DNA of 64,000 nucleotides from a virus, in IMG/VR virus record IMGVR_UViG_3300037462_000828, positions 1 to 64,000 of that record. One strand, 5' to 3'. How positions within the stretch are numbered: position 1 is the first letter of the stretch; every line of letters begins with the position of its first letter. Position numbers and translations under genes: made by a program. The notes under the pieces are model-generated. The model did no database searches. It was not told where the DNA came from and saw only the letters and a program-made list of their open reading frames with translations. Positions 33,352 to 52,656 of the stretch are shown piece by piece.

Positions 33352-33371
33352 GGGGCCTCGGTAGTTCTCGC

Positions 33372-33428
33372 CGGCGGTCTCGCCCGCCGACAACTAGAAC
33401 ATACGTCCGAGTGGCGGACTTGTAAAGG
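33372..33428 (-). promoter_or_regulatory. early promoter PA (TTTACA-N17-TATGTT) with operator-like palindrome and 5' stem-loop
   Basis: Member of a six-copy repeat family. Confidence 0.85.
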
Positions 33429-33803
33429 TCAAATCGACATCGGCTCGACCGTCCAGGCGCCCGACGAGTCGGGGGAGGCCTCGGCCGGGTCGGGCGCGGC
33501 GGGCCAGTAGCAGAGGGCGTGGCCGGCGAGGCAGACGGTCGCGGTCGCGCCGGCGCGGGCGAGGGCCCGGGCGGCCGCCATCGCGGCGCCCTCGTCGCCG
33601 CCGGAGGGCTCGACGCGGGGGCGGCCCCCGGGACCGCAAAGCCGAACGGTGTAGGCCGGCGCGGGGGCCGGCGCGGGGCGCCCGAGGCGGCGGGCGAGTC
33701 GTCGTACGAGTGCGAGCATGGTCCCTAGTTCTTCCCGAGCCCGCCCCCTCCCCCGGCGGGCCCTTCCTGCGGTTGCTATACTACGCCCCCCCCCGGGAGC
33801 GCT

Positions 33804-34244
33804 TCAGTCGGCCCAGGCCCGGGCGCCCCACCCCCGGGCGCGCGCGGCCCGCACGAGGGCGGGGATCATCTGCGACCGGGGCGTTACCTTCGGGCCGCGC
33901 TTGCGGTACTGCGGCGATCGCTCTTGCGGGTGCTCGCGGCAGAGCCGCGAGAGCGCGGCGCCGTCGGCGGCGGTCAGCCGGTAGTCGAGCCGCGCGACGT
34001 CGCCGGCCGGGCGGTCGACGGGGTCGAGGGGCCAGCGCTCGGCGGCGGCCGACCGGACGAGCAGCCCGAGCAGGAACGATTCGCTCGCGCCGAGGGCGGC
34101 CGCGAGTTCGGCGAGGCGCCGGCGGTCGCCCGCCTCGAGTTCGCAGGTCGAGTGCGTCTTCGTGCCCTCGCTCGCCGGGGCGCGCGCGCGGCCCCGGCCG
34201 CCGGCTCTCGAGAGGGTTTTCGGGTCGCTTCGGTCGTCGGTCAT
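33804..34244 (-). CDS. tandem ribbon-helix-helix DNA-binding protein (candidate repressor)
   Basis: Two strand-helix-helix units (STCEL..DRRRLAELAAALG.SES.LL; LDYRLT..D...L..L....SQMI..LV). Confidence 0.6.
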   Translation of the reverse strand: MTDDRSDPKTLSRAGGRGRARAPASEGTKTHSTCELEAGDRRRLAELAAALGASESFLLGLLVRSAAAERWPLDPVDRPAGDVARLDYRLTAADGAALSRLCREHPQERSPQYRKRGPKVTPRSQMIPALVRAARARGWGARAWAD

Positions 34245-34274
34245 GATCGGGGGCGGGCCTCCTGCCCGTCGGTC

Positions 34275-34302
34275 AACCTACGCCCCTATGGCGTAGGGTC
34301 AA
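34275..34302 (-). promoter_or_regulatory. promoter PF (TTGACC-N16-TAGGTT) overlapping the perfect palindrome CCTACGCC-N5-GGCGTAGG
   Basis: Read directly; immediately upstream of the RHH gene. Confidence 0.75.
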
Positions 34303-34312
34303 GGCCCCGCCC

Positions 34313-34522
34313 CTAGCGACCGCGGCCGGGCCCGAGCACGAGCGGCATCCGGGCGGCCGCCTCGCGGCGGGCGGCGTTGGCGGCGCGTCGTGCGGCGTCG
34401 GCGCGGCGCGAGGCCTCGAGGCTGCGCATCGCGACGCGGATCGCCTCGGCGCCGAGGTCGAGCTTGGCGAGGGTCGGGGAAGGGGCGGGGAACATGCTGC
34501 TAACGGCGGTACGGGTCGACAT
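34313..34522 (-). CDS. small hypothetical protein
   Basis: ACCCCATG start context shared with other early genes. Confidence 0.5.
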   Translation of the reverse strand: MSTRTAVSSMFPAPSPTLAKLDLGAEAIRVAMRSLEASRRADAARRAANAARREAAARMPLVLGPGRGR

Positions 34523-35102
34523 GGGGTTCGTTGGTCTCAAACCTAACGAACGGCCCGGGCCGCCCGGGCCCGTAGGGGCTAATCGACGAGGGCCGGCGGC
34601 GCCGGGTCGGCCGGGGGCGGCTCGTCGCGGGGGCAACGCCCGGCGCATTGGCCAAAAACGAGCGGGCTGCCCCCGCTCGCGATCCACCGAAGCGGCCCCG
34701 GGTCGCTCTGCCCCCAATGGCTCGGCGGCTTGAGCAGGCACCGGGCGGCGGGCGAGACCAGTTCGAGCCGAAGCCGGTTGCGCGAGCGGCGCACGCCGTC
34801 GAGGCCTTCGGGGTCGGCCGGCTGTACGCGGCTAGGGCACGCGGCGCGGTCGGTCGGGGGCGGCTCGCCCTCGAGAACCTCGCACGCGGCGATCGCGGCG
34901 ATCGCGGCGTCGGGGCCGACGAGGGCGACGAAAAGCTGCGCCGCGCCGAACGCGTCGGCGCCCTCCTCGAGGGTCTCGCCCGAAGGAACGTCGCGCCAGT
35001 CGATGACCGAACCGCGCCCGGCCGTCACGCGCGGGCCGTGAAGCACGGCGCCGGCGAGCAGGTGCCGCGCCGCGCGCCGAACGGCCGCGAAGGTCTCGGC
35101 GC

Positions 35103-35507
35103 TCACGTCGCCGACTCCGAGCGGAGCGTCGGAGGGCAGGGTTCGGACGGGCGCCCCTCGGGGGGCGGCGCGCGCCAGCCGTCGCAAGGGGCGCCGTCCT
35201 CGTAGCGGGCGAGCACGCGCCCCGTGCGACGGTCGAACGCCTCGACGACGCCCGAGCGGTCGAGGCTCTCGGCGAACGCGTCGACGACGACCTCGGCGCG
35301 GCCCTCGTCGGTGCCGGGCCAGCCCCCGTCGAGTTCGACCTTGTAGTCGGTCCCCGCGTCGCCCCCGGTCGTCTCGGTCACGCGCAGGCCGTAGCGCGGA
35401 AGGCGCGCGTAGAGGTCGGCCCGTAGGCTGTCCTCGCGGCTTACCTCGGCGAGGTCGGCGGCCTCGGCCGCGAGGCGCTCGCGCTCGTAGGAAACGGTGC
35501 TTGTCAT
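35103..35507 (-). CDS. early orphan protein
   Basis: AGAAAGACAAGGGGACATG start region shared with the gene starting at 32293; follows H4. Confidence 0.6.
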   Translation of the reverse strand: MTSTVSYERERLAAEAADLAEVSREDSLRADLYARLPRYGLRVTETTGGDAGTDYKVELDGGWPGTDEGRAEVVVDAFAESLDRSGVVEAFDRRTGRVLARYEDGAPCDGWRAPPPEGRPSEPCPPTLRSESAT

Positions 35508-35549
35508 GTCCCCTTGTCTTTCTCTGCGGGTCGGCTTCGGCGCCGACCC

Positions 35550-35594
35550 CTCACGCGGCAATGCCCCCGGGCGCCTTGCGGGGCGCGGGGGCGG
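35550..35594 (-). repeat. intergenic hairpin repeat H4
   Basis: GCCCCCGCGCCCC-GCAA-GGCGCCCGGGGGCATTGCCGCGTGAG. Confidence 0.85.
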
Positions 35595-35599
35595 TCAGG

Positions 35600-35917
35600 T
35601 CAGGCGGCGACGTCGCAACGGAACGCGTCGGCGCCAGAGGTCAGGTGACCGAGAACGGTGCGGCGAATCGCGTCGAACGCCTTGCCGGCCTCCGTGGGCG
35701 GGAACATGTCGGCCCCGCCGGACAGCCCGTACGTCCACCCGCCCGCGCGGTAACGCACCTGCCAGCCCTCGGCGCCGCTCTTGCGGCTGGCGGCGGCGGT
35801 GCGCGTCTGTCGGGCGCAGACGATGAGCACGAAATCGAACCGAGGCATCGCCTTGGCGGCGAGCGCCACATCCCAAACCTTCGCCGAAATCGCCGCCTGA
35901 ATCTCCGCTTTCGTCAT
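35600..35917 (-). CDS. small early protein, first gene after promoter PB
   Basis: AAGGA SD; ORF fills the PB-H4 interval. Confidence 0.65.
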   Translation of the reverse strand: MTKAEIQAAISAKVWDVALAAKAMPRFDFVLIVCARQTRTAAASRKSGAEGWQVRYRAGGWTYGLSGGADMFPPTEAGKAFDAIRRTVLGHLTSGADAFRCDVAA

Positions 35918-35941
35918 GGGGTCTGGTTCCTTTTTGCCGCC

Positions 35942-35995
35942 GGGTCTCGCCCGCCGACAACGAGAACCTACGACCTAGTGTCGTAGTTGTAAAGG
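35942..35995 (-). promoter_or_regulatory. early promoter PB (TTTACA-N17-TAGGTT) with perfect palindrome CTACGAC-N5-GTCGTAG
   Basis: Repeat family member. Confidence 0.88.
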
Positions 35996-36631
35996 CCCGT
36001 CCGGTCGATTATTGCCGAGGGCCTCGGCGGGCGAGCGCCCGAGCCACCAACCCGGCGACGTGCCGTCGGGCCGGTAGAGGGCCATGACGTCGGCGAAGAT
36101 GGGCGTAGGTACGAGCCCCCCGACGGTCTCCCAATCGCCGCGGCGGGCGGCCTCGCGCACGGCGGTCGAACTCGCGGCCGGGGGCTGAGGCAGGTGAAAA
36201 TACCGATAGCCCTTGCGCCCAACGATGATCGGCGGGGCGAGCGCGCAGAGTTCGGCCCAGTAGGCCTCGCCCCAGGTCGGCCCCCGCTCGTACGTGTCGG
36301 CGCCGACCGCGAACCGAAGGGCCCAGTCGGTGTGCTCGGCGAGCAAGTGCTTGACCGTGCGGAGCGTCAGGCTCTCGCCGCCGAGCCGGCCCTCGACGTC
36401 GCTCACCTCGGCGCGGGGCACCCAAGCGAAGGCCTTGCGGGCCATCGCGAGGCGGGCCTCGAAGGGGGCGAGGCTCTTGCCGGCCTGCTGGTAGCACGGC
36501 ACGACGAGCACGCGGTCGACCTCGCCCGAGAGGGCGATGCTCGCGGCGGCGACGACGTGCCCGACGTGGGTCGGGTCGAGTGAGCCGCCGTAGAGGGCGA
36601 CGCGCGTCGGGCGGGGAGAGGGGGGCGTCAT
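35975..36631 (-). CDS. nadD: nicotinate/nicotinamide mononucleotide adenylyltransferase (NadD-like)
   Basis: LYGGSLDPTHVGH (HxGH), T.RT..L, VGAD and SSTAVR motifs in NadD order. Confidence 0.85.
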   Translation of the reverse strand: MTPPSPRPTRVALYGGSLDPTHVGHVVAAASIALSGEVDRVLVVPCYQQAGKSLAPFEARLAMARKAFAWVPRAEVSDVEGRLGGESLTLRTVKHLLAEHTDWALRFAVGADTYERGPTWGEAYWAELCALAPPIIVGRKGYRYFHLPQPPAASSTAVREAARRGDWETVGGLVPTPIFADVMALYRPDGTSPGWWLGRSPAEALGNNRPDGPLQLRH

Positions 36632-37004
36632 GGCCGGAGCCTGGCGCGCCGCCGGGGCGGGCCGCGCGCCGGGGGCCGCTACCGCGCGGCGCCGAGGCAC
36701 CACGCGACGAGCCGGTCGTGCTCCTCGGCGGCGGGCCCCTCGATCGAGACCGTACGCGCGAGCGCGTCGGCGGCCGCCCCCGGGGGCGCGCCGTCTCCGC
36801 CGCCGAAGCGCTTGGTCGACGGCGGCTCGTCCTCGCCCCCGGCCGGCGGGGGGTCGGAGCGGGGCGCCGCCGGGAAGGCCTGGCGGTAGGGCCCCGGCGG
36901 GGGGTCGGAGCGGGGCGCCGCAGGCCGAGGCCGGGCCCGCGGTGGCTTGGCGGCGCCGAGGCCGCACAGGGCCGCGAGGGCGGCGAGGGGCGAACGGCGC
37001 ACGG

Positions 37005-37643
37005 CTACGCCCCCTCGGCCGGCGCGGGCGGCAGGTTGCAGATGACGACGTAGGCCCGAACGGGGTGCTTGGTCTTGAGGTTTCGAAACCCAATCATCGC
37101 GCGCCGGAAAACGTCGCGGTCGACCGAAACGTCGACGCGCCAGCCGGCGGCGTCGTCGCTTTGAAAGACGAGCCGCGCGCGCCGGCGCCACGAAGCGCCA
37201 TGGCACGCGCCGAAGTCGTAGTCGGGCTCGCGCGCCTCGACGAGCGTAAAGGGTTCGGCCGCATCGCCTCGTTCGCCCGCAACGCTTGCGAACCGCGCGA
37301 GGGCCCCGGCGAGCGCCCCCGACTGCTCGGCCGACGATAGGGCGGTGGCGGCAAGCGCGAGCGGCCGCGCGTCCTCGGCCTCGCGGCACCGGGCCTCGAA
37401 ATAGGAGGCCTTGGTCGCGAGCAGCCAGACGAGCACGCGGTCGCCGACGCCCGCGGCCGTATCGGTCGGCTCGACGGCGAAGCGCTCGACGTGGTCGGGC
37501 CACCAGCGGGGGCACGCGACGCGGAGCGCCCAATGGTCGACCGGGTCGCGCTCGACGGTAAAATCTGCGGCCCGCACGTCGGTGCGCGTCGGCCGGGCGG
37601 AAAGCACGCGGTCGACGACGAGGTCGGCGAAGGTCTTGGCCAT
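37005..37643 (-). CDS. hypothetical protein
   Basis: ATG coupled to the upstream stop codon. Confidence 0.55.
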   Translation of the reverse strand: MAKTFADLVVDRVLSARPTRTDVRAADFTVERDPVDHWALRVACPRWWPDHVERFAVEPTDTAAGVGDRVLVWLLATKASYFEARCREAEDARPLALAATALSSAEQSGALAGALARFASVAGERGDAAEPFTLVEAREPDYDFGACHGASWRRRARLVFQSDDAAGWRVDVSVDRDVFRRAMIGFRNLKTKHPVRAYVVICNLPPAPAEGA

Positions 37644-38332
37644 CAGCCGACCCCGAGAAGCGCGATCGACGCGCCGTAGCGGCGCACGGCCTCGGAGCAA
37701 CCGTCGCGGTCGTCGGCGATGCGCGCGCGGAGCACGCGGCGCAGGCCCTCGAGGTCGGCGGCGAGCCCGATCGGGCGGTTGTCGACGCAGAATACCTCGC
37801 GCTCGGCGCCAGACAAAAACGTCGCGCCGATCGACGAAGGCCGGACGAAAAAGCCGACCGTCGGGCCGTCGCGCTCGATGCTTAGGGCGAGGTCGGGACG
37901 CTTGGCGAGCCCGGGGGCGAAGGCGAGTTTTGCCGCCTCGAGAAGGCGGCCGGTCTTGTACGGGTCGAGGGGGGCCTGGTCGTCGGTCATGGTTGGTTTC
38001 TCCGCCGAGGGGTACGGCCCGCCTCGGCCGGCGCGTAAGGGCTTTTTCGGGAAGGGCAGCGGAATCGTTCGGGCGGCGGGGTCGCCGGGCGGGGCGCCCT
38101 CGGCCATCGCGTCGAGCGCGTCGGCGAGGGCGTCGTCCTCGGTGTCGAAGAGGTCGGGCCGCCCGCGCCCCGTCGGCAAACTGCGGGCGTGGGCGCCGAC
38201 GAGAAGCTGCCCGAGGCGCAGCGCGGGACAGGCGAGCCACGCGGCGAGCAGGGCCTCGACGACGAGGCGCTTTTGCGCGGGCTCGGCGGCGCGCCCCGGG
38301 GGCGGCCCGGGGAAGTGGCGCGGCGGGCTCAT
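37643..38332 (-). CDS. hypothetical protein (possibly two in-frame genes; second start at ATG 37990)
   Basis: AW..CP.LRLGQL motif in the N-terminal half; GGAG SD before the internal ATG. Confidence 0.5.
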   Translation of the reverse strand: MSPPRHFPGPPPGRAAEPAQKRLVVEALLAAWLACPALRLGQLLVGAHARSLPTGRGRPDLFDTEDDALADALDAMAEGAPPGDPAARTIPLPFPKKPLRAGRGGPYPSAEKPTMTDDQAPLDPYKTGRLLEAAKLAFAPGLAKRPDLALSIERDGPTVGFFVRPSSIGATFLSGAEREVFCVDNRPIGLAADLEGLRRVLRARIADDRDGCSEAVRRYGASIALLGVG

Positions 38333-38790
38333 CCGAACGGGCAGCTCTCGGGCGCTGGCTCGACGCCGAGTTCGTCGCACGCGTCAAGGATGGCCTGGTG
38401 TTGGCAGCACGCTTCGGTAAACCGGGCCGTGGCCGCTTGGGCCGACCGGTCGGCCTCCTCGGCGTCGCGGCCCGAACGCTTGGCGAGGTTGGCGACGAGG
38501 TCGAGTACGGCGAGCAGCGGCTCGTCGTTGCGATCGGATCCCCACGCGTGCGCAACGCCCGACGCGACGATCGCCGGGCCCTGCTCGTCCTCGGGGCAAT
38601 GGCCATCGAACGTTTCGACCAGTTCGGCGACGTACTGGCCCGACGAGCCCGGCGCCCCCGGGTCGAGCAGCCGAAGCTCGAACGAGCGCCCCGTGTAGGC
38701 CGACTCAACGGCGCGCTCGAGCACGGCGATGGCCTTGCCGAGGCCGCGCACCCGGCCCTCGACGGGGGCCGTTCGGTAGGCGGGTATCAT
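38329..38790 (-). CDS. hypothetical protein
   Basis: Coupled ORF. Confidence 0.55.
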   Translation of the reverse strand: MIPAYRTAPVEGRVRGLGKAIAVLERAVESAYTGRSFELRLLDPGAPGSSGQYVAELVETFDGHCPEDEQGPAIVASGVAHAWGSDRNDEPLLAVLDLVANLAKRSGRDAEEADRSAQAATARFTEACCQHQAILDACDELGVEPAPESCPFG

Positions 38791-39431
38791 GGCGCGGCCT
38801 CGGGCGTGCGCGGCAGGACGGCGGTCCTCCCGGCGGCGTACGTCGCGGCCTTCGCCTCGCAGCGGCCGGCAAGGTAGCGCGCCGCCTCGTCGAGGGCGGA
38901 GAGCGAGCCGTCGTTGCGCACGACGACGTCGAAGATCGCGTCGGGCAGATCGCCGAGTTCGCGCTCGCTTTGGTGCGCGCCGGCGTCGCCCGCGAGCCCG
39001 GCCCCGGGCCGGACGATCCGAACGAGCAGGGCGCCGACGTCGGCGAACGCGAAGAGTTCGTTTTGAAAGCGCGCGTCGTCGAAGACGAGAAGGCCCGCGC
39101 CGCCGGCGGGCTCGTCGGCCTCGGCCATGCGGCGGGCGGCGTCGATCCAGACCCGCGGGTAGATCTGCCGGCCGACCTCGGTGCCGAGCTTCTGAAGCGC
39201 CTCGCGCGGCGTCAGGCACGTGCCGTCGGCGCGGGGGAAGCGCGGGTCGGGCCGGTTTCTCGCCTCGCTCGGGCCGTAGAGCTGCGCGTGCGAGAAGCCG
39301 AAGACAATCGCCGCCGCTTGCTTGAGCGGCGCCGCGAACGACGACCGAAGAAAGCCGTGGTTGCGTACGAGGGCGGTCGCGAGCGTGCTTTTGCCGGCGC
39401 CGGCGGCACCGGACAAGAGAATGACCTTCAT
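38787..39431 (-). CDS. deoxynucleoside monophosphate kinase (T4 gp1/T5 dnk-like)
   Basis: GAAGAGKST P-loop; FAAPLK, TPREALQKLGTE, DARFQNE and HQSE motifs. Confidence 0.9.
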   Translation of the reverse strand: MKVILLSGAAGAGKSTLATALVRNHGFLRSSFAAPLKQAAAIVFGFSHAQLYGPSEARNRPDPRFPRADGTCLTPREALQKLGTEVGRQIYPRVWIDAARRMAEADEPAGGAGLLVFDDARFQNELFAFADVGALLVRIVRPGAGLAGDAGAHQSERELGDLPDAIFDVVVRNDGSLSALDEAARYLAGRCEAKAATYAAGRTAVLPRTPEAAP

Positions 39432-39692
39432 GACTTGAACCTCACCCTTTCGTTGACGGCCGCGAGCACGCTCGCGACCAGCGGCCAGAACCCGCGCGCG
39501 GGGTAGGCCATGACCTCGAACCGTTCGTCGACGCCGGTGACCAGGCACCGGCCGCGGCACGCCTGGGGCATCGCCTCGCCCGGGTCGCGCGCGCCGACGC
39601 CCTCGATTTCGGCCTCGCCGAGCACTTCGTCGAGGGCCTCGACGCCGCCGGGCCGCAGAATGACTTTGACGATGATCATCTCGCGTGGCCTT

Positions 39693-40613
39693 TCAAAACT
39701 CTAGAACTTCGTTGACCGGCTCGGCCGCGCGCGGCCGCAGCGGCGCGGGCCGGTAGCCTGCTGTTACGACGACCTCGAGCACGTCGCCGCGCGCGTCGGC
39801 GTCCGCGGCGATCGAGCGGGGGGCGGGCAGGGGCTCGACCCGAAACGGGTGCCCGGCGTACCAGCCCGTGACCTTCTCGGTCAGACCGTTCGAGGCCATG
39901 ACCTTCGCGCCCCGGCCGGCGGCGGCGCGCAGGGCCGCGGCGAGCCGCGCTTGGTCCTTGTCGCCGAACCCCTCGGCGGTGTACGCGGTGAACGATTTCT
40001 TGCCCGGCGGCGCGTCGTAGGGCGGGTCAGCGTAGACGAAATCGCCGGCCCGCGCCGCCGCGACGGTCGCGTCGAACGGGCAGCAGACGAGTTCGGCGCG
40101 CGTGCGGCGCAGGGCGTCGGAGCAGGCGTAAAGGTTCGCCTCGCCGAGGTCGGGGGGGAGCCGCTTTTTCCCCCAGGGCGTGTTCATCCGGCCGTCCCCC
40201 TTGTTGACCCGATAGAGCCCGTTGTAGCAAAGCCGGTTGAGGAAGATCATCCGGCCGGCGACCTCGCCCGGCTCGAGCGCATCGGGGTCGAGAGCGCGCG
40301 CGGCGTAGTAGTCGGCCTCGGCGATGACAACCCCCTCGGGGGCGAAGCGGCGGAAGGCGTTGGCGACGCCCGAGGGGTCGTCGCGCACGGCCTCGTAGGT
40401 CGTGACGAGTTCTCTGTTCGCGTCGGCGAGCAGGGGGCGCCGGCCGTCGAGCCGGCCCTGCGCGGCGAGCTCCCAAAAGAGGGCGCCCCCGCCGAGGAAG
40501 GGCTCGACGTAGCGGCCGCGCCAGCCACCGCGCGGCAGGCGCGCGAGGAGCGACGGCATGAGGCCGCGCTTGCCGCCGGGCCAGCGCAGGAAGGGCTCGG
40601 GGCGGGCGGTCAT
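39693..40613 (-). CDS. dam: Dam-family DNA adenine methyltransferase (D12 class)
   Basis: LRWPGGK, EPFLGGG, LNRLCYNGLYRVN and YADPPY motifs. Confidence 0.92.
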   Translation of the reverse strand: MTARPEPFLRWPGGKRGLMPSLLARLPRGGWRGRYVEPFLGGGALFWELAAQGRLDGRRPLLADANRELVTTYEAVRDDPSGVANAFRRFAPEGVVIAEADYYAARALDPDALEPGEVAGRMIFLNRLCYNGLYRVNKGDGRMNTPWGKKRLPPDLGEANLYACSDALRRTRAELVCCPFDATVAAARAGDFVYADPPYDAPPGKKSFTAYTAEGFGDKDQARLAAALRAAAGRGAKVMASNGLTEKVTGWYAGHPFRVEPLPAPRSIAADADARGDVLEVVVTAGYRPAPLRPRAAEPVNEVLEF

Positions 40614-40860
40614 TCGGGCGCGCCGACGTTCTTGCACTGCTCGGTTCGCTCGCGCTCGACCTCTTCGAGCGCGCCGCGGGCGCAGCGCAGGGCGGTCTTG
40701 AGCCGGTCGACGGCCAGGCGGGCGCGCTTGACGCGTTCGGCGGCGCTCGGGTGAACGCGCTTGTGCGTTCGGTTGACGACGTCTAGATCGCGGCTCGCCA
40801 AGAACGCCGCGCTGGCCGCGCGACCGGCGAGTTCCGACGCGTTTGGGTTCGGGTCTGGTT

Positions 40861-42399: not shown

Positions 42400-42615
42400 T
42401 CATGCGGGCACCGCCGAGACTTCGCAGAGGCGCGCCCGGCGATCGCGGGCTCGGCGCACGATCTGGCAGATGCGGGCCGCCGTTACCCCGAGTTCGGCCG
42501 CCACCTCGACCTGTTTCTTGCCGCCCTCGACGGCGGCGAGAACGCGCGCGTCGCGCTCGATCGCCTCGGCGACGGTCGACGGGCGCGGGCAGGCCATGCT
42601 GAGGGGCGCGCTCAT
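42400..42615 (-). CDS. small HTH protein (sigma region 4-like)
   Basis: G.KQ.EVAAELGVT..RI.QI helix-turn-helix. Confidence 0.75.
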   Translation of the reverse strand: MSAPLSMACPRPSTVAEAIERDARVLAAVEGGKKQVEVAAELGVTAARICQIVRRARDRRARLCEVSAVPA

Positions 42616-43936: not shown

Positions 43937-43948
43937 GGGCGGGATCGG

Positions 43949-44248: not shown

Positions 44249-44287
44249 GGGGGTCTATCTCCTGCGCGGTTCGGGGGGGGTGTCGGT

Positions 44288-44455
44288 TCAGGTCAGGCCG
44301 GGGTCGTAGGCGGAGACCCACGCGTCGGCGCCGGCTTCGTCCCACGGTCGGCCGAGAAAGGCCGCGTCGCGCTCCGTCCGGTAGGCGCCGAGGGCCTCGG
44401 CCTCTTCGGGCGACTCGCGGTGGCTCACGTCGTCAATCGGGTCGTAGGTCGTCAC
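44288..44455 (-). CDS. small acidic protein, first gene after promoter PC
   Basis: GTG start; D/E-rich, 55 aa. Confidence 0.5.
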   Translation of the reverse strand: MTTYDPIDDVSHRESPEEAEALGAYRTERDAAFLGRPWDEAGADAWVSAYDPGLT

Positions 44456-44481
44456 GGTCGGCTGCTCGTTCGGTTCGTCGG

Positions 44482-44535
44482 GGGTCTTGCCCGCCGACAA
44501 CCAAAACCTACGACCGAGTGCCGTACTTGTAAAGG
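44482..44535 (-). promoter_or_regulatory. early promoter PC (TTTACA-N17-TAGGTT) with operator and 5' stem-loop
   Basis: Repeat family member. Confidence 0.88.
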
Positions 44536-44622
44536 GGGCGCCCGTGCGATTGTTGCGGCGAGGCTTCTTTCGGCCCTGGCGTCGCTACCGCGTCGAGGCG
44601 ATTCCCGGGCCGGCGAGCGAGG

Positions 44623-45066: not shown

Positions 45067-45177
45067 CTTCTCTCCTCGCCGGCATCGCCGGCATCGCCGG
45101 ATGTCGTGGTTGCGGCCGAGCCGCGCCGTCGAGGCCCCACGCGGGGGCGCCGGCGGCGGGGAGCGCCCGCGCTCGGG

Positions 45178-45723
45178 TCAGCCGAGGCGGGGGATCAGCG
45201 CGTTGACCGACTCCCACACCAGCGCGGCCGGGGCGTAAAAACGCACGGGCTCGCCGACCGAGCCCCGACGGCGGTCGACCCGCACGCCGGCGTCGCGCAG
45301 GGCGACGAGCAGGGCGCGCGAGTGGCTCGCCGCGTCGCGGGCGGCGTAGTCGATCGCGTCCGATAGGCTCGGCGTCGACGCGCCCCACGGCGCTTGCTCC
45401 TTCAGCCCGCACCACGCGGCGATCTCGGGCCACTCGGCCCAGCCGCGGCCGGCGCGCCAACGGCCGGCGAGGACAACGAGCGTGTACGCGAGGCCGAGCC
45501 CCTCGTAGTCGACGCCGCCTCGGCCGGGCCCGAGGTCGGCGAGGGCGTCGCCGTCGTCGGTCGCGTGGTAGTCGTCGACCGTGCAGATAAAAAAGTCGTT
45601 GACGCACCCGGTGTCGCGCAAGGCGATCATCGCCTCGGCGCGCTCGGCGGCCGAGGCCGGGCGGCCCTCTCGGATGTGGGTCAGGGGAACGTCGCGCCAG
45701 CTGGGGTTCTTGGTCTTCGGCAT
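45178..45723 (-). CDS. early orphan protein
   Basis: Start lies just downstream of H6. Confidence 0.65.
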   Translation of the reverse strand: MPKTKNPSWRDVPLTHIREGRPASAAERAEAMIALRDTGCVNDFFICTVDDYHATDDGDALADLGPGRGGVDYEGLGLAYTLVVLAGRWRAGRGWAEWPEIAAWCGLKEQAPWGASTPSLSDAIDYAARDAASHSRALLVALRDAGVRVDRRRGSVGEPVRFYAPAALVWESVNALIPRLG

Positions 45724-45733
45724 GGGGTGGTCT

Positions 45734-45776
45734 CTCACGCGGCAAAGCCCCCGGGCGCTTGCGCACGCGGGGGCGG
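45734..45776 (-). repeat. intergenic hairpin repeat H6 (identical to H1)
   Basis: 43/43 match to 32330-32372. Confidence 0.9.
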
Positions 45777-45793
45777 TTCAAAGGGTCGGGCGG

Positions 45794-45961
45794 CTATTGC
45801 GCGCGTGTAAAAAGAACGATGTTGTCGAGCCGCGTGACGGCTCGCCAGGGCTTCGGGGTCTGCCCAGGATAGCCACGGAACCGGCGAAGCGTTGGGCGTG
45901 CCTGCAAAATTATGCCGGCGTCCGCGTCGTGCCAAACCAAAAGCCGAGTCGTTCGCTTCAT
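45794..45961 (-). CDS. small basic early protein (55 aa)
   Basis: GGAGGGTAAGACGATG start context nearly identical to that of the gene starting at 32950. Confidence 0.65.
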   Translation of the reverse strand: MKRTTRLLVWHDADAGIILQARPTLRRFRGYPGQTPKPWRAVTRLDNIVLFTRAQ

Positions 45962-45993
45962 CGTCTTACCCTCCGAAGCGCCATCGGGCGCCC

Positions 45994-46036
45994 CTAACGC
46001 CCGAAGCCCCAGGCTTTCGCTCTGTGGCGGGGCGTC
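45994..46036 (-). repeat. intergenic hairpin repeat H7
   Basis: GACGCCCC-GCCACAG-A-GC-GAAA-GC-CTGGGGC-TTCGGGCGTTAG. Confidence 0.85.
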
Positions 46037-46059
46037 GGTCGGGCCCCCCGGCCCGCCTT

Positions 46060-46182
46060 TCAGAAGTCGTCGTCTTCGTCGGCGTCGTAGGTCCCGAGGC
46101 CCTGAAGGCTCTCGTCGAGGGCCTTCCAAGCCTCGATCTCTTTGAGGCTCTTTTCGGCGCGTTCTTTTTCGGAGGCGTTCAT
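46060..46182 (-). CDS. 40-aa acidic peptide MNASEKERAEKSLKEIEAWKALDESLQGLGTYDADEDDDF (not in the ORF track)
   Basis: Manual translation; purine-rich upstream region and ACCCCATG context; first ORF after promoter PD. Confidence 0.7.
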   Translation of the reverse strand: MNASEKERAEKSLKEIEAWKALDESLQGLGTYDADEDDDF

Positions 46183-46207
46183 GGGGTCGGTCTCTTTCGT
46201 TCGGCGG

Positions 46208-46264
46208 CGGCGGTCTCGCCCGCCGACAACGAGAACCTACGACCGAGTGGCGTACTTGTAAAGG
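46208..46264 (-). promoter_or_regulatory. early promoter PD (TTTACA-N17-TAGGTT) with operator and 5' stem-loop
   Basis: Repeat family member. Confidence 0.88.
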
Positions 46265-46272
46265 CCTGCCGA

Positions 46273-46728
46273 TCAAAAAGGCAAATCGAGGCCGAAAAAC
46301 CACGTCAGCGGCAGGGCCGACCCCTTGCCGTGGTTGCAGTCGCCGCAGGCGGGGGCGACGTTGCTCGGGTCGTTCGGCCCGCCTGCGGCGAGGGGGTAGA
46401 CGTGCTCGAGTTCGAGGGGCACGCCAGAGGCGCCGCACCACCCGCAGCGGTGACCGAAGAGGTCGAGCAGGCCCCGCCAGTCGGCCGCCGCGAGCGTGCC
46501 GCCGACGCCCGCGCGCCGGGCCCGCGCGCCGGCCCGCGTGACCTGCTTTCGCTCGAGGTACTTCGCCTTGTGCTTGCGCTCGGAGGCGACCACTTGGCCG
46601 GTCTTGCAGGCCTTGCAGCGCGAATCGAGGCCGTCGTAGGTTCCCGCCTTGCGGTGAAAGGGCCCGGCCCCGCCGCATTGCCTACACGCCTTCGTCGGGA
46701 CCGCCGCCACCGCGCACGCTGCCGTCAT
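46273..46728 (-). CDS. HNH endonuclease with N-terminal Zn finger
   Basis: CGWCG...EHVYPL..GG.N..SN..PAC..CN..K. Confidence 0.9.
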   Translation of the reverse strand: MTAACAVAAVPTKACRQCGGAGPFHRKAGTYDGLDSRCKACKTGQVVASERKHKAKYLERKQVTRAGARARRAGVGGTLAAADWRGLLDLFGHRCGWCGASGVPLELEHVYPLAAGGPNDPSNVAPACGDCNHGKGSALPLTWFFGLDLPF

Positions 46729-47273
46729 GCCCGAAGGCAACGGCCGAACCCGACGGCGGCTAAGGGCGGCCGACGAAGAACGGCGCCGAGCGCCTCGGCG
46801 GCGGCGCGTACGAGCGGGTGCGCCGCGAGCGCCTCGAGCGCCTCGGGGTCGGCCGCCGCGGTCTCGACGCGCTCGCCGGGGGCGGGGCGCTCGCCCTCGT
46901 AGACCGCGCCGAGCTTGACGAGCACGCGGGCGAGCGAGCCGCGGTGGCACCGCTCGGGCCCCGGGCAGTGGCAGAGCAGCGTCACCTCGGGCCGGGCGAG
47001 CAGCGCGGCGAAGGGGCCCCGGTCGGCCCGGTAGCGGGCGCGGAGCTCGGCGAGGTAGGCGGCCTCGTAGCGGGCCCAATCGGCGTCGGCCTCGGCCGAC
47101 GAGCGGCGCTGGCGGCGCCGGGCGAGGTACGGCCGGAGGAGCCCCCACGACGGGGCGAAGACGACGCCAAGCGGGTGAGCCCCGGCCCTCGAGACGTCGA
47201 GCCCGTCCTCGGCCCGGTAGGCGCCGACGCGGCCCGTAAAGACGCGGCAGGGGGCCGGGGCGGCTTCGGCCAT
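46725..47273 (-). CDS. DUF488-like protein
   Basis: FAPS..LL...W..Y...Y..E and TLLC.C...RCHR motifs. Confidence 0.7.
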   Translation of the reverse strand: MAEAAPAPCRVFTGRVGAYRAEDGLDVSRAGAHPLGVVFAPSWGLLRPYLARRRQRRSSAEADADWARYEAAYLAELRARYRADRGPFAALLARPEVTLLCHCPGPERCHRGSLARVLVKLGAVYEGERPAPGERVETAAADPEALEALAAHPLVRAAAEALGAVLRRPPLAAVGFGRCLRA

Positions 47274-47601
47274 CGGTCGGCCTACCGGTAGCGGGCGGCG
47301 CGGAGGGCGTCGACCGTAAACCAAGACCCCTTGCGCTCCGGCCCGATCACATAGGCGAGCCCGGCGACGTCGCGGCCCGGGTCGGGCACGTGGTGGTCGA
47401 GCGCGTAGCCGGCCGCGACGAGGTCGCCGAGCCGGCGCGCGGGGTAGATGCTCATGCGCGCCGGCTCGCCGCCGATATGCACGACGGCGCACGTCGCTCC
47501 GTGGTCGGCGAGCACCCACGAGAGAAGTTCGCCGAGCGACGTCGACCCCTCGCGCCACGACCGGACGGGCTCGGGCGCTCGACCGGCCCGCGCGGTCGGC
47601 G

Positions 47602-48432
47602 TCACGCCCCGCCCCCCGGGAACGCACGCACGCGCAGGTGCTCGGGCCACTCGTCGGGGTCGCCGCCCTTAGGGTGCTTGGCTCCGTTCGCCTTGGCCCA
47701 GGGCGAACCCAACTGCTTAACAAACACGTCGGCGCCGGCAAGGTAGCCCGCGTGGACCGCCGCGTCGAACCACGCCATTTCCGTCGGCCGCGCGCCGGGC
47801 CCGCTCTCGCCCCCGACGATGAGCCAGTCGACGCCGTCGATGCTCACGTTCGTCAGGTCGCCGAGCAGGGGCTCGGCCGAGACGAAGCGCACGGCGGCGG
47901 GCGCGTGGCGCAAGTGCGTGATGCGTCCGGCGACGGCGGCCGACTCGACCGATGTACCGAGCCAGACGTTCGGGAGCGGCCAGCCGGGCCACGCCTCGTT
48001 GCCGGGAACGCGGCGGCGCACCTCGCCGACGAACTCCGGCGACTCGAAGAGGTCCGACGCGCGCGCGGGCCGCTTGGTCAAGACTTGGTAGGTATGGCGC
48101 GGCGTCGCCGCCATCGTCGCGAACGCCTCGTGCAAGACCTCGGGCGGCACGTCTTCGTGAAAGGTGTCGCTCAGCGAGTTGACGAAGATGCGCCGCGGCT
48201 CGCGCCACGACATCGGCGTGCGGAAAAACTTCGGCACGGGGCGGACCTCGCCGGTCCAGACCGGGCCCTTTTTGCCGAGGCGCACGAGCCCGGCGTAGGG
48301 CAGGCCCTCGGCGTTGAACCGGTAGGCATGGCGCTCGGCGTAGCAGTGCTCGCAGCCGGCGCTCACGCGCGAGCAGCCGCGCAAAAAATTCCACGTCGCG
48401 TCGGTCCACTCGATCTTCGACTGGTCAGCCAT
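47602..48432 (-). CDS. Gp37/Gp68 (DUF5131) family protein
   Basis: SKIEWTDATWN...GC..VS.GC.HCYA, FVNS.SD.FH, LTKRP, S.EPLL and IVGGESG motifs. Confidence 0.93.
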   Translation of the reverse strand: MADQSKIEWTDATWNFLRGCSRVSAGCEHCYAERHAYRFNAEGLPYAGLVRLGKKGPVWTGEVRPVPKFFRTPMSWREPRRIFVNSLSDTFHEDVPPEVLHEAFATMAATPRHTYQVLTKRPARASDLFESPEFVGEVRRRVPGNEAWPGWPLPNVWLGTSVESAAVAGRITHLRHAPAAVRFVSAEPLLGDLTNVSIDGVDWLIVGGESGPGARPTEMAWFDAAVHAGYLAGADVFVKQLGSPWAKANGAKHPKGGDPDEWPEHLRVRAFPGGGA

Positions 48433-49138
48433 CGGCGCACACCTCGTAGTAGTAGGCCTTGATCGCCTCGGCGCACGCCGTCGGCCGGAGGTGGTCCTCG
48501 ACGCCCGAGCCCCGAAGGCCAGGCGCGAGGTTGAGGTCGGTCGCGAACATCGCGCCCCAATACGAGACCGCGAGGTCGATCGCGAGAAGCGGCGACTTGT
48601 AGATCCGCATGAGGTGCTCGCAGAGCGCGTCGACCGACGGCGGCAGGGTCGTCGCCTCGACCTTGATCTCGTCCGTGCCGACGTTCGAGCGCCAGTCGCC
48701 GGGGCTCCGGTAGCGGAGCACGAACCCGAGCGCGCCGACGCGGAGCCAGCGCACCGACTCGCCGCCCGTCGCCGGGTGCGGGACGAACTCGGCCCAGCAC
48801 TCGTGGCCGAGCACGCCGGCGAGCGACCCGAGGCGCTTGCCGAGCCCCTGATGCATCGTCTCGTCTTCGTAGACGACGACGCGCTCGCCGAGGCCGACGC
48901 GCGACCGGCCCGAGGCCGGGTGATGCTGCTCGCGGCCGATGCCCCAGCGCGGTACGCCGCCGCCGGTGAGCGGGAAGCGCTCGAAGGCGCAGGCAAGCGC
49001 GTTGAGTTGCTCGCGCCGCGTCGGGAAGTCGTCGCGGGTATTGCGCCGCCAGACCGGTACGCCGGGCCCCCGCCGGTCGAGCATACAATCGTAGTAGTCG
49101 GTGTAGGGGTACGGCGCGAGCGCCAGGGGGCCGGTCAT
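48425..49138 (-). CDS. ATP-grasp (RimK-like C-terminal) protein
   Basis: EFV......R, DWRSNV and AIDL.......TD.N.APG motifs. Confidence 0.6.
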   Translation of the reverse strand: MTGPLALAPYPYTDYYDCMLDRRGPGVPVWRRNTRDDFPTRREQLNALACAFERFPLTGGGVPRWGIGREQHHPASGRSRVGLGERVVVYEDETMHQGLGKRLGSLAGVLGHECWAEFVPHPATGGESVRWLRVGALGFVLRYRSPGDWRSNVGTDEIKVEATTLPPSVDALCEHLMRIYKSPLLAIDLAVSYWGAMFATDLNLAPGLRGSGVEDHLRPTACAEAIKAYYYEVCADG

Positions 49139-49452
49139 CGGAGCCCCCCGGGGCGCCACGTCGCCGGGCGCTGCGCGCGACACGTCGAGCCGAACGACCA
49201 GCGCCCCGGGCACTCGACGGGCAGGATCGCTTTCCCCCCGCCGGGCGCGTCGTAGGCGAGCGTGCACGAGACGTAGCCGTCGCCGTCCGTGTCGTAGTCG
49301 GCGCAGACGGCGCGCGCGCCCTCGATCCCGGTCTGCTCGGCGAACGCGCGGGCCTCGCGCGCGGCGGCGTCGCCGGCGGGGCGCACCGCGACGACGAGCG
49401 CGACGAGAGCGGCCACGCAGAAAAACAAGATCGAGCCTTCTTTGACGTTCAC
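49135..49452 (-). CDS. membrane-anchored Cys-rich protein with DxDxDG loop
   Basis: N-terminal TM; CADYDTDGDGYVSC. Confidence 0.6.
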   Translation of the reverse strand: MNVKEGSILFFCVAALVALVVAVRPAGDAAAREARAFAEQTGIEGARAVCADYDTDGDGYVSCTLAYDAPGGGKAILPVECPGRWSFGSTCRAQRPATWRPGGLR

Positions 49453-49881
49453 GAGAACCTCCAGAACGAGGGGCGGCCATCGGGGCGGCCGAAGACAATC
49501 GACGTGGCGGTGCCCACGGCCAGCGCGGCGAGCGCGCCCGCGGCGAGGGCCGAGAGGAAGGCCGAGGCCGCACAGGCCCCGGCGAGAAGGGCGGCGCGCT
49601 TCATCGTTGGTCGGCCCCGTAGCCGACCGCGCCGCTGGGCACGGAGGCGCGAATGCCGCGCGCGACAGCCTCGAGAGCCCCGGCGACCCGGAGCGCCGCC
49701 TCGTCGCCGACCTCGGATCGAGCCTTGCCGGGCGAGAGCGCGACGCAGTCGGGCGGGTCGCCGAGCGCGCCGTGCTCGAGCCGAAGGTCGGCCGATCCGT
49801 TCACGGGGCAGACCGTGACGACGACGCGCGGCCGCTCGAGAGTCACGCTCACCGAGCGTTCGAAGGTCAAGCGCGGCTCGC

Positions 49882-50529
49882 TCACGGCGCGCTCCCGGCC
49901 GGCGCGCGGCCCTCTTCTTTGGCGGCGTAGTCGGCGAGGGAGTAGCCCGCCGGGTACCGCGCGGCGAGTTTCGCTTGGTTGGCGGCCATCGCCGCGGTCA
50001 GGCTCGAGCCGCACCACGCGAGGCCGTGGGCGACGAGCGCGACGACGCGGCCGACCGCGTCGAACACGTCTTCGCGGGTTACGTCGTTGCCCGCCGAGAG
50101 TAGGTCGCCCGCGACGGCCATCACGCGCGCGAAGAGACCGGCCGGCACGAGCACGACGGCGTTGCGCACGGCCGCCGGCGGAACGTCCGAGGCCGCGCAC
50201 CAATCATCGGCCCGGACGGTCAGGTCGCCGACGCACGCGCTAAGCGGCACGCCGATCGCCTCGGCGAGGTAGGCGCAATACCAAAGCACGTCGCCCGACT
50301 CGTCGTTGAGGCGATCGAGGTCGACGGGCCGGCCGTGAAAGGCCGACTTTTTGATGACACCGAAGAGTTCGCCCGCCTCGCCGGCGAGGCTCGAGGCGCC
50401 GTAGAAAAACCGGTAGGTCATCGGCTTCGGCTCGCGCGACTGACCCGAGCGCGTCATCGCCTCGGCTTGGTACGCGTCGAGTTCGGCCGCGTCGGCGGCG
50501 ACGCGCGGGGGCTGCGGGGTGGTCGTCAT
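49882..50529 (-). CDS. MazG-like nucleotide pyrophosphohydrolase
   Basis: LAGEAGE..G.IKK..FHG, ESGDVLWY and N.AKL..RYP motifs. Confidence 0.88.
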   Translation of the reverse strand: MTTTPQPPRVAADAAELDAYQAEAMTRSGQSREPKPMTYRFFYGASSLAGEAGELFGVIKKSAFHGRPVDLDRLNDESGDVLWYCAYLAEAIGVPLSACVGDLTVRADDWCAASDVPPAAVRNAVVLVPAGLFARVMAVAGDLLSAGNDVTREDVFDAVGRVVALVAHGLAWCGSSLTAAMAANQAKLAARYPAGYSLADYAAKEEGRAPAGSAP

Positions 50530-50745
50530 TTCGTCGGGGTCCTTTCGTAATGCTTGCACGTGTCGCCCGGCGCGCGGGCTTTGCCGTAGAGCCGCTCGAC
50601 GGGGCCGTCGAACCAAAACCCGTGCGACTGAACTTTCGGCCGGTGCGTCGCGTCGAGCGAATAGCAGGCGCCGCCGGCGGGCCCGCTCGCGAGGTAGTGC
50701 GCGCAGCCCGAGCAGAGGCGCGGGGGCGGCGCGGCGATGGGGAGG

Positions 50746-51585
50746 CTAGCGCCTGGCACGGGCGCCCCCCTTGCTCGGGGCCTTCGCCGCGGCCGGGGCC
50801 GGCGCGCGCGCCGCGCCGTAGGGGCGCCAGACGGGCACCCCGAGGCCGCGCGCGGCGCGCACGGTGTACTCGGTCCCGTTGCCGCCCGGCAGGGCGACAA
50901 CGAGGTGCGGGCGCACGGAGGCGAGCATCATGTCGTTGCGCTCGAGGGGGGCGCGCCGCCCGGCGCGGTCGTAGTCGGCTTGCGTGACCGGAAAGCGCAA
51001 CCGCTGGTCTTGCGGAACGCCGCGCGCGTCGGCCCAGGCGTCGGCGAGTCGGTCGGCGCCCTCGGCCGCGCCGTGGGCGAGAACGGGACGAAAGCGCGGG
51101 GGGAACTGGAGCGCTCGGTAGGCGCCGGCGACGACGCGGTCGCACGCGAGGGCCGCGCCGGCGAGGTCGTCGTAGGCGCGGCCGCCCGTCACGACCCAGC
51201 GCACCTCGTCGACCCAATCGGTCGGGCGCGGGTACGGCACGAGCGGGGCCATCGCGGCGTGGTTCGGCGCCATCGACCACGATCGCAGGAGCGCCGAGAC
51301 GACGCAATCCTCCGCGACGGCGCGCACGAACGGAGATCCGCCGCGCGCGCCGAACGGAACGAGGCCGCCCTTGCCGTCGGTCCAGGCCTCGAAGAGGTTC
51401 CCGCGCTCGTCATCGACGAAGACGATCTCGCGCAGGCCCGTCGTCAAAAACGACGCGTACTGCTCGGCCGCCTGCGTGTTGGATCGCCCGGCGTACGCCA
51501 TCGCCGGGCGCCCGGGCGCGAAGGCGACAAGCGCGCGCCCGCGCACGTATTCGTCGGTAGGAGTCTCCTCGATAGATGGGGTCAC
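50746..51585 (-). CDS. SLOG-superfamily (YspA/DUF2493-like) protein with N-terminal extension
   Basis: VTGGR.Y.D, HGAA.GADRLA, RN..M and ALPGG.GT motifs. Confidence 0.85.
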   Translation of the reverse strand: MTPSIEETPTDEYVRGRALVAFAPGRPAMAYAGRSNTQAAEQYASFLTTGLREIVFVDDERGNLFEAWTDGKGGLVPFGARGGSPFVRAVAEDCVVSALLRSWSMAPNHAAMAPLVPYPRPTDWVDEVRWVVTGGRAYDDLAGAALACDRVVAGAYRALQFPPRFRPVLAHGAAEGADRLADAWADARGVPQDQRLRFPVTQADYDRAGRRAPLERNDMMLASVRPHLVVALPGGNGTEYTVRAARGLGVPVWRPYGAARAPAPAAAKAPSKGGARARR

Positions 51586-51993
51586 GCGGTCGGCCTTTCG
51601 TTCGTTGCGCGGCGCCGTTCGCCGCTGGTAGTTCGAACGGCCGGCGCGCGCCCCGCGTTAAGCGCGCCCGGTTCTTTTTGCCGAGCTCGGCCCGGGCGCG
51701 CAGGCCGGCGACGACCTCGGCGAGGGCCTCGCGCAAGAGCGTCTCTTCGACCGGCGTTCGGTCGTCGAGCCGTAGAAAATCGGTCGCATCCCATCCCGAC
51801 GCCGCGTCGAACGACGTCGCGATGCCGTCGCACACGAAGCGCACGGCCTCGTCTTTCGAGAACGCCGCGCCCTTCGGCTTGCGTCGGCCCGCACGGTCGG
51901 GCTCCGGCCGCTCGACCGCGGCGTTGAGGCAGTCGACGCACGTAACCTCGAGTTCGACCTCGTCCTCGCTCCGGTAGCACTGTGCGCAGTGGC

Positions 51994-52560
51994 TCACGAG
52001 AGCCTCGGCGCCGAGACGGGCGGCAGGGGGCCGACGGGGGCGCCGGGCCAGCGGCCGTCGCGGCCGAACGCCTCGACCTTGCGGTCGTAGATGGCCGCCT
52101 GCGCGTCGAGCGCGACGCGCTCGCGCTGCCCGTGGGGCAGGGCGACGAGGGCCCCCCGGTCGACCTCGTAGGCCGCCTCGCCGCCCGAGCGCGCCCACCA
52201 CGCGGCGAGCGCCGCGGCGAGGTCGCCGTAGGCCGCCGGGCCGAACTCGCCGCGGGGCGCCATCTCGAGGGCGGCGTCGGCGCACGCGGCCGGAAGGGGC
52301 ACGGGGCGGCAGGGGTGGAACGCCGCCGGCACGTCGGCGACGAGTACGTCGGCCGCGCCCTCGGCGAGCGCCGCGGCGAGCGCGTGCTCGTCGACGAAGA
52401 GCCGCCCCGCGCCCCCGCGCCACGCCGGCACGTAGAGGGCGCGGGCGTAGCCGAGGCTCGGCTCGTAGGCCCACGCGTCGTAGGCTAGCGCCGCGGGCGC
52501 GATCGCTTCGAGCACGGCCGAACAAGCGCGGGCGTCGCCCGCGCGCATTGTCGTCGTCAT
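51994..52560 (-). CDS. hypothetical protein, first gene after promoter PE
   Basis: GGAAGG SD. Confidence 0.6.
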   Translation of the reverse strand: MTTTMRAGDARACSAVLEAIAPAALAYDAWAYEPSLGYARALYVPAWRGGAGRLFVDEHALAAALAEGAADVLVADVPAAFHPCRPVPLPAACADAALEMAPRGEFGPAAYGDLAAALAAWWARSGGEAAYEVDRGALVALPHGQRERVALDAQAAIYDRKVEAFGRDGRWPGAPVGPLPPVSAPRLS

Positions 52561-52626
52561 AGAGCCTTCCCTTTACTTCCGCGCGGTCCCTGCGCGTCGC
52601 GCCGGCCCGGTGCCGACGCGCTATCA

Positions 52627-52656
52627 AACCTACGCCACTTGGGCGCGATGTAAAGG
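52627..52656 (-). promoter_or_regulatory. promoter PE (TTTACA-N16-TAGGTT) with degenerate operator
   Basis: Same hexamers as PB-PD. Confidence 0.7.

Follow-up and report, generated by a model that had tools for sequence, protein, structure and literature searches.

The DNA analysed here is the first 64,000 nucleotides, called the window below, of IMG/VR record IMGVR_UViG_3300037462_000828, a linear sequence of 111,726 bp with 73% GC that is estimated to be 87% complete. Its source is an uncultivated contractile-tailed phage. The window encodes a DUF2586 sheath, a tape measure, and a baseplate J protein, and a Mu-type portal is encoded beyond it. According to position-specific GC content and a codon-usage gene finder, the genes are arranged in three blocks, which run rightward (1-24.9 kb), leftward (25.0-53.2 kb), and again rightward (53.5-111.6 kb). 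Our subject is the leftward block and a class of promoters in it that carry a short dyad across the spacer and the start of the -10 box, which could be the operator of a phage repressor. The block comprises about 28 kb with ~55 genes, most of them small orphans; those that can be named encode a Dam-type methylase, RusA, a deoxynucleoside monophosphate (dNMP) kinase, a MazG-like protein, a DUF5131 protein, and a SLOG-family protein. Because such a content is usual for an early or host-takeover region, the block is considered to be early, judged by gene content alone.

A promoter class with a dyad in its spacer

Eight promoters of one kind, here called class B, are present in the genome. Six of them (PA, PF, PB, PC, PD, and PE) lie in the window, all on the minus strand and thus directed leftward, and two more, P90800 and P84670, are found beyond it (Table 1). 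The original prediction had described a regulon of six promoters; their positions, hexamers, and spacers of 16 or 17 nt are correct and the six sites are real, but they are only the part of the set that falls into the window. The general form is CC-TT[T/G]AC[A/C]-N16/17-TA[G/T]GTT. The -35 hexamer is TTTACA in six promoters and TTGACA and TTGACC in one each, so that five or all six positions agree with TTGACA, and the spacer has 17 bp except in PF and PE, where it has 16 bp. Seven of the eight -10 boxes read TAGGTT or TATGTT, while that of P84670 is TATTGA and does not have the T at -7. Such sites are far more frequent than expected by chance: TTTACA-N17-TAGGTT with at most one mismatch has four matches in the window compared to 0.01 expected, and a looser sigma70-like pattern has eight matches in the genome compared to 0.03 in 100 dinucleotide shuffles. 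Only ten sites in the genome fit a generic pattern (TTGACA-like, 16-18 nt, TAnnnT), eight of them intergenic, and seven of these eight are class-B promoters with the dyad. P84670, with its A at -7, escaped the TAnnnT scan and was found by a weight matrix. The only other intergenic sigma70-like site, which is located between the open reading frame of 40 codons behind PD and the next gene, does not contain the dyad.

The six window sites are located in intergenic gaps of 57-115 nt and face start codons that follow at 30-66 nt. The ATG of P90800 and of P84670 comes exactly 6 nt past the -10 box, which places the hexamer at -12 to -7 of a leaderless message, and this geometry is independent positional support for working promoters. 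By their hexamers, spacing, intergenic location, and orientation to the start codons, the class-B sites look like real sigma-A-type promoters. Because they fit an ordinary housekeeping sigma factor, they are taken to be read by that of the host, which we regard as quite likely.

The dyad, TACGNC-N5-GNCGTA, covers 17 bp at the downstream end of the spacer, and its final TA provides the first two bases of the -10 box. Its half-site centres are 11 bp apart, and its register to the -10 box is fixed. All six pairs are complementary in PB, PF, and P90800, five in PC (where the sixth is a G.T pair) and PD, and four in PA, PE, and P84670, which agrees with the earlier grading of the window sites into perfect (PF, PB), singly mismatched (PC, PD), and degenerate (PA, PE). 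Invariant in all eight promoters are C3, G4, C6, G12, C14, G15, T16, and A17. These positions mirror each other, and the sole freely variable position (5/13) is likewise symmetric. The strict pattern TACG.C-N5-G.CGTA occurs seven times in the genome, compared to 0.03 times in shuffled sequences or 0.26 times as calculated from the half-site counts (223 x 129 / 111,726), and at any spacing other than 5 the strict half-sites combine at most once (0-1 copies). PA and P84670 carry versions of the strict pattern with one mismatch. Independent information is provided by PF and P90800, which have a different 5-nt centre and no leader in common with PA, PB, PC, and PD but nevertheless perfect arms, by the inner four pairs kept in PE, and by copies of the dyad outside promoters.

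Eight such non-promoter copies with one mismatch are present in the genome, and three of them lie 165-221 bp downstream of PA, PE, and P90800, for which we estimate P ~0.02 (post hoc, for three of ten copies being within 400 bp of a class-B promoter). These three do not have promoter features and are possible auxiliary operators that could act through looping. In addition, two perfect dyads are found in tail genes (Poisson P ~0.03). Both are in frame as Tyr-Val-x-Glu-x-Tyr and may be coding coincidences or real binding sites.

The best single explanation, narrowly probable although unproven, is that the dyad is an operator. From the sequence features, their statistics, and their positions we infer early, host-read promoters that are bound and repressed by a protein. 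The leftward block would be split into transcription units, each headed by a promoter of the sigma-A/sigma-70 type, and the dyad would bind a phage-encoded protein, either a dimer or a single-chain pseudo-dimer. Proteins bound across the spacer and the -10 box block the sigma-70 holoenzyme, as at OR and OL of lambda or with P22 Arc on Pant. In the same way the bound phage protein would exclude RNA polymerase from the -10 box and jointly repress the class-B promoters, with PF, PB, and P90800 as the strongest sites and PA, PE, and P84670 as the weakest, and the near-copies downstream would assist by looping. Spacers of 16-17 bp are optimal for unaided binding of sigma-70. An operator of the MerR type, which is combined with an over-long spacer of 19-20 bp, is ruled out by the spacer length.

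Table 1. Positions of promoters, dyads, and other features in the numbering of the IMG/VR record
Feature	Position	Strand	Remarks
PA promoter	33398-33426	-	TTTACA-N17-TATGTT; first ATG 33351, 46 nt past -10
PA dyad	33402-33418	-	4 of 6 pairs
PA shifted dyad	33405-33419	-	GTCCG-N5-CGGAC, perfect
PF promoter	34275-34302	-	TTGACC-N16-TAGGTT; ATG 34244, 30 nt past -10; no shared leader
PF palindrome	34277-34297	-	CCTACGCC-ATAGG-GGCGTAGG; perfect, 8-bp arms, longest of the set
PB promoter	35965-35993	-	TTTACA-N17-TAGGTT; ATG 35917
PB dyad	35968-35986	-	CTACGAC-ACTAG-GTCGTAG; perfect, 7-bp arms
PC promoter	44505-44533	-	TTTACA-N17-TAGGTT; likely GTG start 44455
PC dyad	44509-44525	-	TACGGC-ACTCG-GTCGTA; one G.T pair
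PD promoter	46234-46262	-	TTTACA-N17-TAGGTT; ATG 46182 of 40-codon open reading frame
PD dyad	46238-46254	-	TACGCC-ACTCG-GTCGTA; one mismatch
PE promoter	52627-52654	-	TTTACA-N16-TAGGTT; ATG 52560 of 188-residue orphan
PE dyad	52631-52647	-	CGCGCC-CAAGT-GGCGTA; inner 4 pairs alone kept
P90800 promoter	90800-90828	-	TTGACA-N17-TAGGTT; perfect dyad; beyond window
P84670 promoter	~84656-84690	+	TTTACA-N17-TATTGA; PA-like spacer; beyond window
Dyad-free sigma70-like site	45907-45935	-	TTGGCA-N17-TAATTT
One-mismatch dyad	33181-33197		GACGTCCAGCCGACGTA; within coding DNA, 221 bp downstream of PA
One-mismatch dyad	52466-52482		TAGGCCCACGCGTCGTA; 165 bp downstream of PE
One-mismatch dyad			167 bp downstream of P90800; beyond window
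Perfect dyad in tape measure gene	6795-6811
Perfect dyad in gene 20676-21224	20901-20917
Class-C sites in window (12, 29282-62113)	29282, 31304, 38013, 43576, 46739, 51636, 53248	-
Class-C sites in window, continued	53336, 54562, 60024, 62088 and others	+	8 further copies beyond window
60-nt promoter and leader cassette	33369-33428, 35936-35995, 44476-44535, 46205-46264	-	PA, PB, PC, PD; 78-92% identity
Leader GUCGGCGGG...	33370-33391, 35936-35958, 44477-44498, 46201-46226	-	PA, PB, PC, PD
43-nt GC-rich repeat	32330-32372, 35550-35592, 45734-45776		two copies 100% identical
P0005 gene	33804-34244	-	146-residue orphan, candidate binder; directly behind PF
71-residue helix-turn-helix protein gene	42400-42615	-	candidate regulator; PC transcription unit
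Sigma fusion gene	82555-84069	+	504 residues; beyond window
DnaB-type helicase gene	57380-60028	+	split by intein-like insert

Proteins and polymerases that may read the dyad

The phage encodes plausible candidates for an operator-binding protein. In our order of preference these are P0005, the helix-turn-helix domain of a sigma factor fusion, and a helix-turn-helix protein of 71 residues, which shows sub-threshold matches to Sigma70_r4 and KorA. The best palindrome of the set, that of PF, is located directly in front of the P0005 gene, which fits autoregulation: if P0005 were the binder, it would be autoregulated from PF. In the Atlas, P0005 has no more than a neighbour cluster at 0.88, of which 11% of the members carry Arc. 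An AlphaFold2 model (model 1, of low confidence with a predicted local distance difference test score, pLDDT, of 55) contains a strand-helix-helix unit twice. Compared to known structures by Foldseek and VIA-align, chains of the F-plasmid relaxosome rank first (E 0.05; Z 4.1). The best match is 9f0x_E (Z 4.1, residues 28-138), which we take to be TraY; the PDB row does not name the chain and its identity is presumed. TraY of F is a single chain with the whole fold of a ribbon-helix-helix dimer and is present in three copies in the relaxosome structure (PMC12117103). In addition, residues 27-72 of model 1 superimpose by VIA-align with a root mean square deviation of ~2 A (Z ~3) onto many ribbon-helix-helix proteins, among them PutA, NikR, Omega, AmrZ, ParG, and antitoxins. 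A ribbon-helix-helix fold of P0005 is regarded as a lead rather than a result.

The second candidate leads to another class of sites. The promoter-like motif CT[TA]A-N16/17-G[CA]CGT[AT], here called class C, has 19 copies in both arms of the genome, mostly intergenic and many of them 9-11 nt before an ATG. Class-C sites are interleaved with class B in the leftward block, and two lie back to back in the divergent region 53239-53551. The earlier interpretation is partly supported, but one repressor for all early promoters is an overstatement given the more numerous, interleaved sites of class C. Because an A at -11 and a T at -7 are missing from them, these sites are not sigma-A-like and are likelier to be the target of the phage's own sigma factor, by which they are probably read. 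Region 2.4 of this factor differs from RpoD at the positions reading -12. The protein combines an HTH_3 domain, a proline-rich linker, and sigma-70 regions 2 and 4 in a single uninterrupted coding frame. The HTH_3 domain (Pfam E 2e-8) has 434 Cro (E 3e-5) and P22 C2 as nearest solved relatives, and the closest matches of the sigma part are RpoS and RpoD. A search for other fusions of an XRE domain with a sigma factor, limited by low-complexity words, returned just this protein itself among 5.8 billion. Its gene lies behind the class-C site 81697, and no class-B promoter is found ahead of it. It is conceivable, but we think rather unlikely, that the Cro-like domain binds the operators and silences the early promoters read by the host sigma factor while the sigma part redirects the polymerase to class C. 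If this were true, one polypeptide would do both halves of the early-to-middle transition.

Several observations weigh against the dyad being an operator. PA, PB, PC, and PD represent a single 60-nt cassette in four copies and are not independent observations. CC-TT(T/G)AC and much of the spacer are common to all eight promoters, with a central ACT in six of them. A common ancestor is thus probable, and the conservation is only weakly independent evidence. The arms had been reported to change together; this amounts to one event, an A-T pair in PB compared to C-G in PF, PE, and P90800, and the variable pair is complementary in four of the eight promoters while ~2.6 would be expected from the column frequencies, which is not significant. 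The right arm overlaps the -10 box, and its core G.CGT is also the conserved downstream element of class C at a similar distance, so that part of the symmetry may reflect recognition by the polymerase. P0005 does not have a sequence match in Pfam, PHROG, NCBIfam, or PDB and does not have relatives past its own 90% cluster among 1.8 billion representatives, and a second AlphaFold2 model of the trimmed protein (pLDDT 53) contains helices only and no strands. Finally, no related phage was recovered that would allow footprinting of the promoter regions.

As a rival explanation, one strong promoter could have been duplicated along the genome, without a dedicated repressor. The spacer would then be kept because the polymerase reads it, the left arm would be retained by descent, and the palindrome would be incidental; the reader could be the host sigma-A or the phage's own RpoD/RpoS-like sigma factor. 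The main argument for such a promoter module is that, anchored on CGT, classes B and C have CC-(C)TT(T)AC and G.CGT in common with almost equal distances between them, G.CGT[A/T] following CC-CTTAC in the 19 class-C sites. The identity of PA, PB, PC, and PD over 60 nt, the conservation of CC ahead of the -35 box and of ACT in the dyad centre, and the insignificant covariation are consistent with it. In addition, the phage sigma factor retains the region 4.2 residues RER.RQ, with which RpoD reads TTGACA-like -35 boxes. However, a duplicated promoter explains neither the mirror symmetry of the invariant positions nor the 8-bp arms of PF, nor why strict dyads are found at a spacing of 5 only, nor the near-copies in coding DNA downstream of three promoters. 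The class-C sites do not have an in-register left arm. We consider this alternative unlikely, although it is the most serious one.

A regulator of the host could also bind the dyad, for example an XRE/ClgR-like or stress-responsive repressor of a probably actinobacterial host, and would tie early phage transcription to the physiology of the host. Actinobacterial regulators of the XRE family, ClgR among them, typically recognise short, GC-rich dyads whose centre has 5 nt. The nearest relatives of the phage sigma factor that were retrieved are encoded by metagenome-assembled genomes of Solirubrobacteraceae, Thermoleophilaceae, and Gemmatimonadales (27-36% identity), and the first two are a weak hint of an actinobacterial host. 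However, matches to promoter plus dyad in metagenomes are at chance level and have no genes in common with the phage, and the gene immediately behind the best site belongs to the phage and encodes a putative DNA-binding protein, in line with autoregulation. We regard a host regulator as very unlikely. LexA boxes, the Deinococcus RDRM, and CsoR sites are not known to fit TACG-N9-CGTA.

Least probable of all is that the dyad acts as a hairpin. On read-through it would form, together with the U-rich tract GGUUCUCGUUGU, a weak terminator or a processing site joined to the next promoter. In favour of this, all sites lie within a co-directional gene block and would therefore be transcribed by read-through, a terminator scan picked out PA, PB, and PC, whose dyads it lists as hairpins with a T-rich tail, the mismatch of PC would be a G.U pair in RNA, and two changes common to PA and P84670 (A4>C, T15>A) disrupt the main dyad while giving rise to a shifted GTCCG/CGGAC stem. 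However, PA, PC, PD, PE, and P84670 with -5.0 to -7.3 kcal/mol fold no better than shuffled sequences and only PF (-14.7 kcal/mol) and PB (-9.9 kcal/mol) stand out, PF, PE, and P90800 do not have a T-rich tail, the real terminator-like hairpins of this genome have 8-12 GC-rich pairs, and the primary sequence of the arms is conserved beyond mere pairing.

Leaders, repeats, and relatives

The cassettes of PA, PB, PC, and PD contain a leader, GUCGGCGGG..., that can fold into a hairpin within a few nucleotides of the expected 5' end (-13.5 to -17.6 kcal/mol). The 5' arm of this hairpin is constant while the 3' arm varies from copy to copy with pairing kept. It may stabilise the 5' end or be a stem-loop to which a protein binds. 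Furthermore, a GC-rich repeat of 43 nt is found in intergenic regions shortly downstream of PA, PB, and PD, in the case of PB and PD directly past the first gene. It resembles a hairpin (CCCCCGCG...CGGGGG) followed by CTTTGCC and, judged by this appearance, may be an attenuator or terminator within the cassettes.

P90800 belongs to a region beyond the window (89598-90933) in which a 246-residue recombinase of the resolvase family is followed by a leftward alanine-rich gene of 103 codons with the leaderless ATG. The latter is the only leftward gene in the rightward arm and is divergent from a class-C site. By its layout the region resembles a small module, either inserted or switch-like. P0001, which is encoded by the leaderless gene, is alanine-rich and helical and did not match any family. 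The recombinase is also the only trace of a lysogeny module, and neither a cI-like gene nor an integrase nor a divergent switch turned up, in a scan of ~125 of the 175 predicted proteins of the 87% complete record.

The DnaB-type helicase gene is split by an intein-like insert with LAGLIDADG/Hom_end homing-endonuclease domains. ARAGORN predicts a tRNA-Arg(GCG) at 4060-4145 on the minus strand, antisense within the tail sheath gene, which is probably a false positive in GC-rich coding DNA. Rfam did not provide a family match in 27000-54000.

None of the cultivated phages is closely related. Megablast against cultivated phages gave no match, and the nearest sheath proteins are those of Thermus, Meiothermus, and Myxococcus phages with 34-37% identity. 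Neither the promoter plus dyad pattern nor the conserved leader has a match in IMG/VR. The bare 14-base pattern of the dyad gave ~100 single matches, which is chance level, and the six matches of a 29-nt pattern in metagenomes were discarded because they lie on contigs of 43-63% GC without shared proteins and are about as many as expected by chance. Of the single proteins, P0005 has homologues of 95-97% identity (contig sizes 14.1 kb, 8.9 kb, and 0.8 kb), and the product of the PE gene has homologues of 96% and 64% identity, that of 64% on a contig of 9,277 bp; alignment of the PE gene did not reveal a match in metagenome or viral contigs, and the relatives retrieved with DUF5131 reach 52% identity at most.

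Comparison with known systems

If the dyad is an operator, the phage would have a compact, sequence-defined early regulon under one type of site, in a high-GC and probably actinobacterial host lineage for which we know of no described phage regulatory circuit. Its parts would be well defined, with TTTACA-N17-TAGGTT and an embedded 17-bp dyad, three apparent site strengths, and three small candidate proteins. Even without an operator function of the dyad, the sites provide a clean consensus of housekeeping-type promoters, leaderless ones included, for an uncultivated phage-host system. A literature search did not reveal anything specific that would be a described equivalent.

T4-like early promoters are many, near-identical, and strong sigma-70 promoters that are conserved past the hexamers and head small early genes, and in large lytic phages such as T4 they are followed by phage-directed promoter classes. 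In contrast to the sites described here, their extra conservation is not a dyad, and we know of no operator-bound repressor silencing them. RK2 provides an example of a small helix-turn-helix repressor system, KorA/KorB, with a short palindrome over the -10 box of several promoters, affinity classes, and autoregulation. However, RK2 is a plasmid, its operator is different (GTTTAGCTAAAC), and the KorA match of the 71-residue protein is below the Pfam threshold. In phage P1 (C1) and mycobacteriophage L5 (gp71), one repressor acts in a large genome on many dispersed sites of varied affinity, many of which overlap promoters. These operators (17 bp and 13 bp, respectively) are asymmetric and serve lysogenic immunity, while the dyad here is symmetric and, except for the resolvase-type recombinase, a lysogeny module was not seen in the 87% complete record.

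Further likenesses are found in lambdoid phages. The cI and Cro proteins of lambda, 434, and P22 are helix-turn-helix dimers that bind dyad operators of 14-18 bp with graded affinities, overlapping the core of PR and PL, and the present phage encodes a helix-turn-helix domain closest to the solved 434 Cro and P22 C2. In lambdoid phages the operators form two clusters, each with three sites, between divergent repressor genes, whereas here single sites are distributed over eight dispersed promoters; in addition, the Cro-like domain of the present phage is part of a sigma factor fusion, and the cI-like gene, integrase, and divergent switch were not found. P22 Arc, of the immI region, is a small ribbon-helix-helix repressor whose pseudo-symmetric operator of ~21 bp lies between the -35 and -10 boxes of Pant, with half-site centres ~11 bp apart. 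Its gene is located within the repressed unit, and PF together with P0005 would follow the same logic. Arc controls one promoter pair, while the phage described here has eight promoters across 57 kb, and Arc is a dimer of 53-residue chains that tetramerises on DNA, while P0005 would be a single chain of 146 residues with two units. By analogy, the arrangement would work like that of Arc and Pant in P22 and of the lambdoid operators, scaled out to many dispersed promoters. In our reading the kind of circuit is familiar while its setting, a phage without known relatives, is new.

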